Notes under the pieces: model-generated
Seen by the model: the letters and a program-made list of their open reading frames with translations, nothing else
Database searches by the model: none
Told to the model about the DNA's origin: nothing
NCBI GenBank assembly: GCA_037380845.1
Contig: JARRRI010000089.1
Coordinates: 1 to 4,142 of the forward strand
Reading direction: 5' to 3'
Source: Candidatus Sulfobium sp.
GTDB lineage: Bacteria; Nitrospirota; Thermodesulfovibrionia; Thermodesulfovibrionales; UBA6898
DNA: 4,142 nt
In this document: positions 50 to 4,085 of the stretch, piece after piece
Layout: each line of letters begins with the position of its first letter
Numbering within the stretch: the first letter of the stretch is position 1
Translations under genes and position numbers: made by a program

Positions 50-763
50 TTACCCCTGCGGTTCAATCGCCCAGAAGGGACTCTTCTTTGCTACTTCCGC
101 GACTGCGGCGAGAAAACCTTTAACATACGCCCCGCTGCGCGAAACATAGTCTTTATCCAGACGCCGCCGGAAGAAATCCAGCGAAAACAGGCCGACAAGG
201 TCCTTAAGTGCAACGATACCTCCCTCGGTTTCGGGCTGGTATCCTTTCCAGTTTTTGATGTGCTCTTCCGACCGGAAGAGGTTCATCGTGCTTCAGGCAT
301 GGGGCAGGTGTTCCATCCATTTCGAAAACGGAACTGACACATACCCCACGATCTCCTCCGGATCGGCCTTCAGGACCACCCCGTCCTTCATCTCCAGGTG
401 CATCGGTGCCCCACAGTCAAGGCAGGGGGCTTCGATTGTTACCGTCTTTCCGGGAAAAAGCCAGCAGACCGCCAGCGATTCGAAGCCTCACTCGGCGAAC
501 CACTTCTGGTGGCCGTCGATCGTGATCCTGTACTGTGTGGGGAGATTGCTGAAGGGTGCGAAACTACCTATATAGTCGGTCTCCGGAAACAGCCAGATGC
601 CCGGTATCCCCACGGACATAAGGTCGTGAAGGGCCTCTCGGGCCTCTTCGATCGGGACTTTAATCGCCGCTGCGATATCGGTATAGTGCGGGGCGCGTCC
701 CGTTGCCACCAGCCTCGTGATGATCGTATTGTACGTTTTATCCAGCACTTCTGCCTCACTCAT
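50..763 (-). CDS. merB: MerB-like (alkylmercury/organometallic lyase family) selenoprotein, 237 aa, with two in-frame UGA codons (predicted Sec92 and Sec157)
   Basis: ATG at 763-761 preceded by GGAGGAGG. The frame runs MSEAEVLDK...PFSNLPTQYRITIDGHQKWFAE-[TGA 490-488]-GFESLAVCWLFPGKTVTIEAPCLDCGAPMHLEMKDGVVLKADPEEIVGYVSVPFSKWMEHLPHA-[TGA 295-293]-STMNLFRSEEHIKNW...IEPQG-TAA (52-50). This joins track ORFs 488..862 and 50..286 in one frame. Motifs match MerB: N-terminal winged-helix-like segment, WFAEUGFESL ~ YAWC96ALD99TL, EAPCLDCGAPM ~ SSHC117AATGAPV, HAUSTMNLFRS ~ SFC159CHVHFFAS. The symbol means family membership, not proven function. Confidence 0.88.
257..287 (-). promoter_or_regulatory. Putative bacterial SECIS element for UGA 295-293 (Sec157)
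   Basis: mRNA: UGA-AGCAC-GAUG-AAC-CUCUUCC-GGUC-GGAAGAG-CA-CAUC. Perfect 7-bp upper stem plus a 4-bp lower stem. The apical loop starts with G, 19 nt after the UGA. Confidence 0.8.
460..476 (-). promoter_or_regulatory. Putative bacterial SECIS element for UGA 490-488 (Sec92)
   Basis: mRNA: UGA-GGCUUCGAAUC-GCUGGC-GGUCU-GCUGGC. 6-bp stem with two G-U pairs. The loop GGUCU starts 17 nt after the UGA and shares the C-GGUC motif of the other hairpin. Confidence 0.65.
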
Positions 764-772
764 GGCTTCTTT

Positions 773-780
773 CCTCCTCC
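773..780 (-). promoter_or_regulatory. Shine-Dalgarno site of the merB-like gene
   Basis: GGAGGAGG on the minus strand, 9 nt before the ATG at 763. This supports 763 rather than 862 as the start. Confidence 0.75.
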
Positions 781-909: not shown

Positions 910-938
910 AATATAGCGCTGCAGGCCGCGACTGTCAA
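910..938 (-). promoter_or_regulatory. sigma70-type promoter for the merB-like gene
   Basis: Minus strand TTGACA (938-933), 17-nt spacer, TATATT (915-910). Implies a 5' leader of about 140 nt. Confidence 0.6.
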
Positions 939-1175: not shown

Positions 1176-1574
1176 ATGGCAAAGGCAACGAAGACAAGGC
1201 TTCTCAGCTTCGACATGAAGGACAGGCCCGGACTGCTTGCGGAGGTCACTGAGGCGCTGGCCGGAGCAAAGGTGAATGTTACGGCCCTCTGCGCATACTC
1301 ATGGGACGACACCGCATATTTCGACATGACCACGGACAGCAACGCAAAGGCCAAAAAGGCTCTGGCGGCGCTGAAGATCAAGGTCGGTGAGGGAGACGCC
1401 GTCAGTGTTGAGATAGCCAACAAGGTGGGAGAACTCCGGAAGGTGGCCGAGCTCCTCGCCGGAGGAGGGATCAACATAATTTATATGTACGGCACGGCGT
1501 CTTCGGGCAGGACGTCAACAGCGGTTATCAGCACATCGGACAACAGGAAGGCGCTGAGACTCATCAATAAGTAG
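1176..1574 (+). CDS. Tandem ACT-domain protein (stand-alone amino-acid/small-ligand-binding ACT protein), 132 aa
   Basis: Strong SD GGAGGT and ATG. Two ACT signatures: DRPGLLAEVTEALAGAKVNV and NKVGELRKVAELLAGGGINIIYMY. Size and layout resemble the Bt0572/COG4747-like two-ACT proteins. Confidence 0.88.
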   Translation: MAKATKTRLLSFDMKDRPGLLAEVTEALAGAKVNVTALCAYSWDDTAYFDMTTDSNAKAKKALAALKIKVGEGDAVSVEIANKVGELRKVAELLAGGGINIIYMYGTASSGRTSTAVISTSDNRKALRLINK

Positions 1575-2275: not shown

Positions 2276-2704
2276 ATGCAAAGAAGAGATTTCTTATCAT
2301 GGCTGCTCAAATCTGCGTGGGTGACGCTCGGTTTGGGGGGCCTTGCCACCCTGCCCTATTTCTACCACTCCCGGAAAGAAGGACCCCTGCGCTTCATTAA
2401 GGCGACGGAGGAGGAAAACATACCCAGGAGGGGAGTAAGACAGGTGGATTTTTCCTTCGCCGGCATGTCGCGCAAGGTTTTCCTCGTAAGGAAGGACAAG
2501 GAGTTTTTCGTCCTTTCCCCGACCTGCTCCCACCTTGGATGCCTTGTCAACTGGAACTACCTGAAGCATGAGTTCGACTGCCCCTGCCACGGCGGCAGGT
2601 ACGATATGGCCGGCCGCGTTATCGGGGGCCCCCCGCCCAAACCTTTGACCAGGCTGCCTTATGTGGTTAAAAAAGGCTTCCTTTACGTGGGGATGAGGAC
2701 GTAG
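2276..2704 (+). CDS. qcrA: Rieske [2Fe-2S] subunit of a Rieske/cytochrome b complex (QcrA/PetC-like)
   Basis: Twin-arginine motif QRRDFL followed by a hydrophobic anchor. Rieske boxes CSHLGC and CPCHGG, and a GPPPKPL proline loop. Confidence 0.95.
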   Translation: MQRRDFLSWLLKSAWVTLGLGGLATLPYFYHSRKEGPLRFIKATEEENIPRRGVRQVDFSFAGMSRKVFLVRKDKEFFVLSPTCSHLGCLVNWNYLKHEFDCPCHGGRYDMAGRVIGGPPPKPLTRLPYVVKKGFLYVGMRT

Positions 2705-3354
2705 TGATAGATTTCATAATAAGGCTGCTTGACCGCTGGTTTAAATTAAGGGAGCCGCACAAGAATTTTCTTGCGAGGGCGCTGCCCCCGAAGTTGAGCC
2801 CCTCCTACTGCCTCGGCGGCATGGCCTTTACGGCCTTCCTCATCTCGGCGGCCACCGGACTGCTGCTTTCCATATATTACGTCCCGTCGGCAAAAGAGGC
2901 GTATCCGAGCATAGTAATGCTCCACGATAAAGTATGGCTTGGATGGCTGATACGGAGCCTCCATAAATGGTCGGCGAATTTCCTCATAATATTCGTTCTC
3001 CTGCACGCAGTGAGGGTCTTTGTGCACAAGGCCTACAGGCCGCCGCGGGAACTCAACTGGATGGCCGGGGCCGCGGGGTTTGTCATTATAATGGTCTCCG
3101 GTTTCACCGGGTATCTGCTCCCATGGGACCAGAAGGCATACTGGGCCACCGAGGTGGGCACCGGGATGGCAAAGACAGTGCCCGGTGCGGGGGGATTCAT
3201 TCTGCGGCTGCTGCGGGGCGGGCCGGAAGTGAGCGGCGCGACGCTCGTCAGGTTCTACAGCCTGCACGCGCTGTGGGCGCCTTTCATGCTGCTTATGATA
3301 TTCTGGGCCCATTTCCACATGGTCAAAAGACAGGGGATATCGGGGGGCCTCTAG
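2704..3354 (+). CDS. petB: Cytochrome b6-like subunit (N-terminal half of a split cytochrome b; PetB/QcrB-like)
   Basis: GTG start overlaps the Rieske stop (TAGTG). YCLGG (Cys36), heme ligands His87/His101/His188/His203, GFTGYLLPWDQKAYWA motif, and C-terminus RQGISGGL similar to the cytochrome b6 end GISGPL. 216 aa. Confidence 0.95.
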   Translation: MIDFIIRLLDRWFKLREPHKNFLARALPPKLSPSYCLGGMAFTAFLISAATGLLLSIYYVPSAKEAYPSIVMLHDKVWLGWLIRSLHKWSANFLIIFVLLHAVRVFVHKAYRPPRELNWMAGAAGFVIIMVSGFTGYLLPWDQKAYWATEVGTGMAKTVPGAGGFILRLLRGGPEVSGATLVRFYSLHALWAPFMLLMIFWAHFHMVKRQGISGGL

Positions 3355-3735
3355 ATGGCAGACGGAAACGGCAAGAAAAGCCTTTACCCGGACTATCTCC
3401 CTTACGTGGCGGCGGCCCTGCTTGTGACCGTAGAGGCGGTCCTGGCGGCGGCCCTCCTGTTTCCCCCGCGCATCGGTCAGGCCATAAACCTGGCCGCGCC
3501 GTACCAGCCGAAGCCGGAGTGGTATTTCCTCTGGATTTATCAACTCCTCAGATATTTCCCCGGCGGGTATGCAATTTTTGGAACCGTCATCATACCCATA
3601 CTCCTGATCCTGGTCTTTATATTCATGCCCTATATCGACAGGGGTAAAAATGGAAGAACGAAGGCGGCCGTTGCAGCGACGGTGCTTCTCGTGCTGCTCG
3701 TGGTCCTCACTCTGATAGCGGCATTCAGGCCGTAA
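3355..3735 (+). CDS. petD: Subunit IV-like protein (C-terminal half of a split cytochrome b; PetD-like)
   Basis: Qo-site motif PKPEWYFLWIYQLLR, three hydrophobic helices, PYIDR motif. No CxxCH, so no fused cytochrome c. Confidence 0.92.
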   Translation: MADGNGKKSLYPDYLPYVAAALLVTVEAVLAAALLFPPRIGQAINLAAPYQPKPEWYFLWIYQLLRYFPGGYAIFGTVIIPILLILVFIFMPYIDRGKNGRTKAAVAATVLLVLLVVLTLIAAFRP

Positions 3736-3854: not shown

Positions 3855-4085
3855 ATAACTCCCCCTTTCCCCCTCTTAACTTAAGAGGGGGTGCCGAAGG
3901 CGGGGGCGTTATTCCAAAGAGTCCCGAAAGCTTTCGGGATCTGGCAAAGGGACCTGCCTGCCGGCCGGCAGGTCCGCTGTCTGAAAACCTGGATTCTCGA
4001 TGCGAGTCCCGAAGCGGGTCTCCGCGTAGGGTCGCTACGACTTCGGTGAGAGTCGCTTCGACCCGATTATTACCTCGGGAATGAC
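3855..4085. repeat. Cluster of REP-like GC-rich palindromes (non-coding)
   Basis: CCCCCTCTTAA-C-TTAAGAGGGGG (3869-3891) inside ATAACTCCCCC/GGGGGCGTTAT (3855-3912). Perfect palindromes TCCCGAAAGCTTTCGGGA (3922-3939) and CCTGCCGGCCGGCAGG (3957-3972). CTGGATTC...CCCGA-TTATTACC-TCGGG-AATGAC (3989-4085) with an internal branched palindrome. Confidence 0.8.

Follow-up and report, generated by a model that had tools for sequence, protein, structure and literature searches.

An uncatalogued MerB-like gene with in-frame UGA codons at both catalytic cysteine positions and a likely two-selenocysteine product

The window, meaning the whole stretch of DNA analysed, is a 4,142-nt sequence from Candidatus Sulfobium sp. 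that makes up the entire source contig (C89) of a 3.18 Mb genome, estimated from marker genes to be 100% complete and 1.8% contaminated. Positions 763 to 50 of the minus strand, read from the window sequence, form a single frame of 237 codons that runs from an ATG to a TAG stop and is interrupted in frame by TGA at codons 92 and 157 alone, as an earlier note on this DNA had claimed. That note also expected standard pipelines to mis-call the gene, and they do: translation table 11 splits the frame into two ORFs (488-862 and 50-286) and leaves the middle segment uncalled, while database entries for the family are fragments or false Trp proteins. The contig ends 49 nt past the stop codon. Among named relatives, Candidatus Sulfobium (86%) and a Thermodesulfovibrionales genome (83%) come nearest, and matches from the window's family and genus fall on identical coordinates, making the host most probably an anaerobe of the Nitrospirota. 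The features of the gene are as follows:

50..763, minus strand: MerB-like gene, 237 amino acids, MerB fold (frame reading, Pfam, alignment, structure model)
Domain layout of its product: N-terminal winged-helix part, residues ~1-70; MerB/NosL catalytic domain, ~71-190; then C-terminal helices
488..490, minus strand: UGA codon 92, predicted Sec at the MerB Cys96 position (alignment; TGA in 115/145 genes, TGY in 30/145)
479..481, minus strand: Glu95 at the position of MerB catalytic Asp99 (alignment; Glu in 144/145 genes)
460..476, minus strand: SECIS-1 upper hairpin, predicted, 6-bp stem and GGUCU loop, the loop 17 nt after UGA92
413..424, minus strand: C114-L-D-C117 motif, in which C114 corresponds to MerB structural Cys117 and C117 is additional
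293..295, minus strand: UGA codon 157, predicted Sec at the MerB Cys159 position (alignment; TGA in 144/145 genes)
257..287, minus strand: SECIS-2, predicted, 7-bp upper stem (280-263), GGUC loop 19 nt after UGA157, 4-bp lower stem
773..780, minus strand: Shine-Dalgarno-like GGAGGAGG, 9 nt 5' of the ATG
910..938, minus strand: sigma-70-like promoter match TTGACA-17-TATATT, 11 of 12 bases by consensus matching

A promoter scan by consensus matching gave 4 sites against 1.1 expected. The spacer of the listed match is the standard 17 bp, unlike that of MerR-type promoters, which have a 19-bp spacer.

The gene points away from the other genes of the window. A stand-alone tandem ACT-domain protein is encoded divergently from it (1176-1574, plus strand), followed by a Rieske protein, a cytochrome b and a PetD-like subunit (2276-3735, plus strand). 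The best NCBIfam matches of this cluster, ExtP (227.5 bits against a cut-off of 290) and ExtQ (25.5 against 150), belong to selenite/tellurite reduction operon families and both lie under their cut-offs. Neither the ACT gene nor the Rieske/cytochrome b cluster recurs beside homologues of the MerB-like gene. In the non-coding tail of the window a perfect 11-bp inverted repeat with a one-base centre (3869-3891) was noticed by eye and is possibly a small repeat element.

With U entered as C, the protein matched the Pfam MerB model (PF03243) at 77.9 bits against a cut-off of 27, and at 61.3 bits with the stops read through. It fell below the cut-offs of the NCBIfam MerB models NF009710 (43.3 against 193) and NF033555 (35.2 against 200). 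All five PDB sequence matches were MerB or MerB2, and these alignments place U92 (in the motif WFAE-U-GFE) at Cys96, E95 at Asp99 and U157 (in HA-U-STMNLF) at Cys159; two UGA codons and a carboxylate occupy the positions of the Cys96/Asp99/Cys159 triad exactly. An AlphaFold2 model reached a pLDDT of 96.2 from a 53-row alignment; Cys stood in for residues 92 and 157 in the model, and Trp occupies these positions in many rows of the alignment. Foldseek returned 11 chains at E<=0.001, all of them MerB, and a wide structure search gave MerB2 at Z 16.7 (rmsd 3.9, 193 residues aligned) and MerB at Z 14.9 (rmsd 4.3, 188 aligned). The next-best match after the MerB entries scored Z 4.5, with NosL at Z 3.8. 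The earlier note had proposed the MerB family and fold, the two TGA codons at Cys96 and Cys159, and a link to structural Cys117. The Pfam score, the fold and the PDB alignments all agree with it, and the counterpart of Cys117 is C114, kept in 145 of 145 genes. The change from Asp99 to Glu95 was absent from its description.

Codons were read in 147 loci representing 145 distinct genes. These comprised 9 genomic loci (window included), the best 80 of at least 563 metagenome stretches that carry the family, 29 loci from a sample of the G064 phylum and 29 from a sample of the G065 phylum. Two frameshifted loci (L011, L012), four duplicates (L014, L015, L112, L132) and one fragment (L017) were left out of the genomic set. 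G065, an unpublished genome, contributes the Cys92 gene L010 and one selA-negative row and serves as the centre of a 201-genome sample; it is the sole basis of no conclusion. At sites 92 and 157, 114 genes carry TGA/TGA, 30 carry TGY/TGA and one carries TGA/GTA. This last gene, L116, is a decayed copy with TAA at codon 23, Gln95 and Val157, and is the sole one of the 145 genes with a codon other than TGA or TGY at these sites. In-frame UGA is aligned with Cys at site 92 in the DNA of the 30 TGY genes, as it is in MerB itself. TGG occurs at neither site in the 147 DNA loci; five Trp positions taken as a control are TGG in 710 of 725 codons. C114, D116 and C117 are invariant (145/145), and H168 is present in 141/145.

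Protein databases give a different picture of the same family. Among the best 120 of 469 protein matches, 57 stop exactly at residue 156 and 54 have Trp92, 52 of them with Trp157 as well; three (P0031, P0055 and P0101) show Cys at sites 92 and 157 and may be records with U stored as C. Likewise, in the best 150 matches of a 50%-identity library, 44 end at residue 91 and 24 at residue 156. One Trp protein, P0013, matches locus L041 at 100% identity once the TGAs of that locus are translated as Trp. With the same translation, 8 of the 54 reach at least 90% identity to family loci, so the Trp proteins look like code-4 miscalls on short contigs.

A hairpin with a conserved GGUC(U)/AGUYU loop follows each UGA. 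The bacterial SECIS model described in PMC13188914 has a loop of 3-9 nt, a stem of 4-16 bp, a distance of 16-37 nt from the UGA, a G within the first two loop positions and an energy of -7.5 kcal/mol or lower. Both hairpins agree with it in spacing (17 and 19 nt), stem (6 and 7 bp) and loop (GG). The energy of SECIS-2, -9.1 kcal/mol, lies within the rule. The upper hairpin of SECIS-1 has -6.5 kcal/mol alone, and the 51-nt region around it reaches -12.2 kcal/mol with a different best fold. Against shuffled sequences the UGA157 hairpin was unusually stable (z -2.9; 2 of 200 shuffles equally good), and the UGA92 hairpin was no better than shuffles (z +0.9). The claim of the earlier note that a hairpin lies downstream of each TGA was therefore upheld by folding for UGA157; for UGA92 folding energy alone is non-significant and the case for SECIS-1 rests on conservation. 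Among UGA92 genes 113 of 115 retain its 6-bp stem, against 1 of 30 Cys92 genes, 28 of these 30 coming from one phylum sample and so not being independent. SECIS-2 is near-invariant across the family loci.

The codons that form the hairpins are also constrained. Modal-codon fractions are 0.99 at S96, 1.0 at C100, 1.0 at L162, 0.99 at R164 and 1.0 at S165, and stem codons range from 0.88 to 1.0 against a mean of 0.53 over 140 other sites. Where residue 100 is Ser, the codon is AGC in 19 of 19 genes. Changes within the hairpins are mostly one-sided G-U/A-U swaps, and no solid two-sided covariation was found in the family loci. All TGA triplets of the genome were also screened for a GGTC loop and a 5-bp stem at a distance of 14-24 nt. 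Of these, 136 of 106,527 pass, among them UGA92, UGA157 and the UGA of the genome's own FdhA gene, whose GGUCU loop lies 18 nt past its UGA, as in SECIS-1. Since the screen was built on the target gene, the FdhA pass is its independent part. Rfam gave no match within the window. Taken with the absence of TGG and the Cys codons at site 92 in 30 orthologues, the conserved hairpins support the view of the earlier note that random nonsense mutations at both positions are implausible.

The source genome encodes selA, selB, selD and tRNA-Sec, the genes that the note had proposed looking for, and its selD and FdhA genes carry in-frame UGA, indicating that the host uses selenium. Among carrier genomes selA was over its cut-off in 59/65 and 3/5. 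Elsewhere in the genome UGA is an ordinary stop: prfB and tRNA-Trp(CCA) are present, and TGA ends 845 of 1727 long frames. The genome also contains a 94-nt tRNA-Cys with a GCA anticodon, a long arm and a U discriminator (G000:C62:31154-31247) that resembles tRNA-ReC/selC*. Judged from the sequence, both UGAs are likely read through by SelB/SECIS recoding to give one 237-aa MerB-fold protein with Sec92 and Sec157; in view of the tRNA-ReC-like tRNA, a two-Sec product is likely but not certain.

The nearest named selenoprotein is SaoL (NF040728), a MerB-like protein with one Sec from the SAO locus (bioRxiv 10.1101/2022.07.06.499078). SaoL and the window protein share the MerB family, a Sec at the Cys159-equivalent position, occurrence in anaerobes, truncation in databases and a function that is only predicted. 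In SaoL, however, the one Sec lies in a CU motif, positions 96 and 99 remain Cys and Asp, and the gene is part of a nine-gene SAO operon, whereas the window protein has two predicted Sec, A-U rather than C-U at 156-157, U92 and Glu95, and its gene stands alone. Membership in SaoL was rejected, with 39.6 bits against the NF040728 cut-off of 140 and no CU motif, and the double-UGA form is distinct from SaoL. At E 1e-12 the SaoL model reached no carrier of the window family, and a true SaoL was found in 1 of 351 genomes. No SAO neighbours were seen in the window, whose contig ends 49 nt downstream, or among the scanned neighbours of homologues; a SaoC search of the genome gave zero matches, as did its control.

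The characterized enzymes MerB (EC 4.99.1.2, plasmid R831b, PDB 3F0O/3F2G/1S6L) and MerB2 (Bacillus, PDB 5C17) share with the window protein the fold (Z 14.9-16.7), the domain order, the triad position and Cys117. It differs from them in overall sequence (~17-22% identity in structure alignments), in predicted Sec for both Cys and Glu for Asp99, in an extra Cys that creates a CxxC, in a longer C-terminal helix and in having no mer operon. The canonical MerB signature includes Asp99 (PMC8261052). We rejected assignment to canonical MerB on the Asp99 to Glu change, the UGA codons at both Cys positions, the missed NF033555 and NF009710 cut-offs and the lack of mer or MerA context. The NosL/TRASH treble-clef relatives have a similar duplicated treble-clef core. 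A treble-clef origin has been described for the fold that MerB and NosL share, NosL being a copper chaperone without the winged-helix part (PMC4999995), and its structural similarity to the window protein is weak (Z 3.5-3.8). C114, C117 and H168 are possibly a remnant of a treble-clef metal site. A CxxC at the same place also occurs in MerB-like proteins with a Cys/Asp/Cys triad and in SaoL, and several of these MerB-like proteins, like SaoL, combine it with C164 and H168. Together with His168, the CLDC motif probably forms a second metal site with a structural role, and we speculate that C164 was replaced by the Arg codon that forms SECIS-2.

Quick IQ-TREE trees placed the U/U, C/U and C/C forms in a single clade with SH-aLRT 100 and a long stem. 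Outside it lie one SaoL, the Cys/Asp/Cys homologues and five plasmid proteins annotated as MerB or MerB-like. Cys92 and UGA92 forms are interleaved in the tree, suggesting that site 92 switched more than once. MerB-like selenoproteins had been reported, as the earlier note stated, and the published SaoL has one Sec; in the 2026 table of 119 prokaryotic selenoprotein families (PMC13188914), the MerB form is represented by single-Sec SaoL alone. The corresponding table row in PMC9312934 likewise gives only the single-Sec SaoL form, and the BSepDB text and one supplement hold no MerB entry. A literature search of papers available outside subscription found no two-Sec MerB, and the available text of deep-Sep and SelCysML has 0 MerB occurrences. 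The family is a real, uncatalogued two-UGA variant of the MerB-like selenoproteins, held in databases as 91-aa or 156-aa fragments or false Trp proteins. It is nevertheless common, with carriers making up 34 of 351 genomes in the G064 phylum sample and 55 of 201 in the Rokubacteria-containing G065 phylum sample. Within the window's order, 4 of 61 genomes have the full gene and one more a fragment. Carriage by 55 of 201 genomes looks more like steady inheritance than mobile resistance.

A conserved operon was sought and rejected: when 1435 flanking ORFs of the 147 loci were clustered by blast, the largest group covered 11 loci. Pfam searches covering 132 of 181 neighbour representatives turned up a single Metal_resist match and otherwise nothing from the mer, sao or metal-transport families; 59 of 79 ORFs scanned from seven wider loci contained no mer or sao family. 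The window itself has no mer context; genes downstream of the final 49 nt lie past the contig end. MerA over cut-off was absent from the source genome (0/1) and was found in 1 of 40 carriers, with 30 candidates scored per genome, and in 1 of 34 carriers of the 351-genome sample. In that sample, by hand counts, hgcA was over cut-off in 16 of 34 carriers (two being N-terminal fragments) against 87 of 317 other genomes, with a Fisher p of 0.03 that is overstated by kinship and genome size. This co-occurrence is weak and confounded by the same two factors, and 18 of the 34 carriers lack a full hgcA. A 2021 survey reported no hgcAB in genomes carrying only merB (PMC8261052), in contrast to the carriers counted here with their single MerA. 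The source genome's own hgcA (L164, G000:C20:88486-89381) is split by a frameshift, either an assembly error or decay, with ~28 model positions apparently missing; it is flanked by an Acr3-like transporter gene, identified by eye, and an hgcB-like ferredoxin.

In MerB, R-Hg is bound first by Cys96 and next by Cys159, the carbon receives its proton from Asp99, and the Hg(II) is handed on to MerA (PMC10114901); computation indicates that thiols can also strip Hg(II) from the enzyme (PMC4525700). MeHg is protonolysed by a selone-thiol compound that mimics MerB, and demethylated by selenoamino acids (PMC10114901). Given that the MerB geometry is kept with Sec, Glu and Sec, we tentatively favor a di-selenolate, Glu-assisted organometal lyase, at chances that we place a little short of even, with the selenium content, substrate, catalysis and product release all inferred. 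Sec92 would take an organometal cation R-M+, for which methylmercury is the leading candidate and other soft metals or metalloids are possible. With Sec157 bound as well, the metal would be held between two selenolates, weakening the M-C bond, and Glu95 and a water would deliver a proton, releasing R-H. Selenols are ionised at neutral pH, so this proton would come from solvent by way of Glu95 instead of from residue 157, the source in MerB. In cells that lack MerA, the metal product might be passed to cytoplasmic thiols or sulfide rather than being reduced. Several points stand against the lyase: Asp99 is replaced, the NCBIfam MerB cut-offs are missed, mer context is lacking, MerA is nearly absent, the distribution looks like steady inheritance, the hgcA link that speaks for it is weak and the genome's own hgcA is frameshifted. 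Very tight Hg-Se binding would also be expected to hinder product release. MerB cannot do without Asp99, and MerB2, which is naturally D99S, does not break down MeHg; the available text of PMC10114901 describes no Glu variant.

A more specific and doubtful proposal is that anaerobic sediment bacteria, often ones with hgcA, use this family as a selenium-based lyase for methylmercury or organometals more widely that works without mer, and that it would provide a gene for part of anoxic demethylation. No gene is known for the anoxic demethylation of methylmercury by organisms without mer operons, according to the available text of PMC10114901. Under this proposal the family would escape merB surveys because its gene is broken up at UGA and its product has no Asp99.

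An alternative in which the MerB fold has been repurposed for redox chemistry, with Sec92 and Sec157 cycling between selenol and diselenide, appears unlikely though it deserves attention. CLDC would then be an electron relay or a metal site, and the substrate a sulfur, selenium or organic compound unrelated to mercury. Most catalogued selenoproteins are redox-active (PMC13188914), and both the invariant CxxC (145/145) and the loss of Asp99 fit such a role, as does a context that is free of metal resistance and includes scattered redox neighbors: redoxin (4 loci), OsmC, CMD, glutaredoxin and nitroreductase. None of these recurs across lineages, however, and the protein has no thioredoxin fold, its structural matches being MerB only. 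In 144 of 145 genes the proton-donor position still holds a carboxylate, and the CxxC, being present in Cys/Asp/Cys MerB-like proteins and SaoL, may be only structural.

We consider it slightly less likely again, though also a serious rival, that the protein is a non-catalytic sink or chaperone whose di-selenolate captures Hg(II), methylmercury, Cu(I) or a similar soft metal, shielding other selenoenzymes or delivering the metal as NosL does. Binding of Cu by MerB D99S (PMC10114901, PMC8261052) and the common fold of MerB and NosL (PMC4999995; NosL Z 3.8) accord with such a function, as do the lack of a MerA for product removal and the host's use of selenium in SelD and FdhA. Yet a stoichiometric sink at two Sec per metal is expensive, the conserved acid beside the site suggests catalysis, and no metal-responsive regulator was seen adjoining the gene in the window or scanned neighbors.

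Slimmer still is the prospect that one or both UGAs are read mainly as Cys by the tRNA-ReC (selC*) tRNA with SelB, giving a Cys or mixed Cys/Sec enzyme compatible with lyase, redox or sink functions. In genomes with a tRNA-ReC, which decodes SECIS-flanked UGA as Cys, Cys may stand at either UGA (PMC13582414), and the 94-nt tRNA-Cys(GCA), with its long arm and U discriminator, satisfies the rule given there. The canonical tRNA-Sec, selA and selD of the source genome are nevertheless intact, and the conservation of UGA and SECIS across phyla would be hard to explain by constant Cys insertion; at low selenium, Cys forms may arise in this genome through the tRNA-ReC-like tRNA. A pseudogene with two nonsense mutations or a UGA=Trp organism, for which only the 54 Trp92 database proteins and the splitting of the gene by standard callers speak, is refuted by codon and hairpin conservation, with no TGG at either site, Trp entries that look like miscalls, Cys codons in orthologues, UGA in use as a stop in the host, and a truly decayed copy (L116) that looks different.

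On the lyase reading the family is a candidate, open to testing, for cleaving metal-carbon bonds where oxygen is absent, and its natural U/U, C/U and C/C forms are a ready series for examining the effect of selenium on Hg-C cleavage. Should the protein turn out to have another function, the MerB fold would still have been put to a new use.

Other MerB-like forms were encountered during the searches. A second di-UGA lineage (L166 in G340, L168 in G252, L169 in G312) has the motifs Y-A-A-U-A-I-D, with Asp99 kept, and S-F-U-R, and a hairpin after each UGA; its genes adjoin MarR or methyltransferase genes. This lineage may have a stronger claim to being a genuine di-Sec lyase. On the question of a separate origin of its Sec96, AU tests on the quick trees did not reject joining the window family with this lineage (p 0.25) or with SaoL (p 0.21). 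L167 (G101) and L170 (G229) have Cys96 and Asp99, carry their one UGA at the Cys159 position outside any CU motif, and fall below the SaoL cut-off. In kin genomes, L018-L020 encode a different form with Cys/Asp/Cys, CxxC...CxxxH and an N-terminal extension. The source genome has no full second copy of the window gene; a short remnant (L021, G000:C18:37030-37158) is ~46-51% identical to the C-terminal part of the protein. In a plasmid collection the best match was a distant full-length homologue of ~24% identity on Ralstonia megaplasmids, present in 82 records as an unannotated or hypothetical protein.
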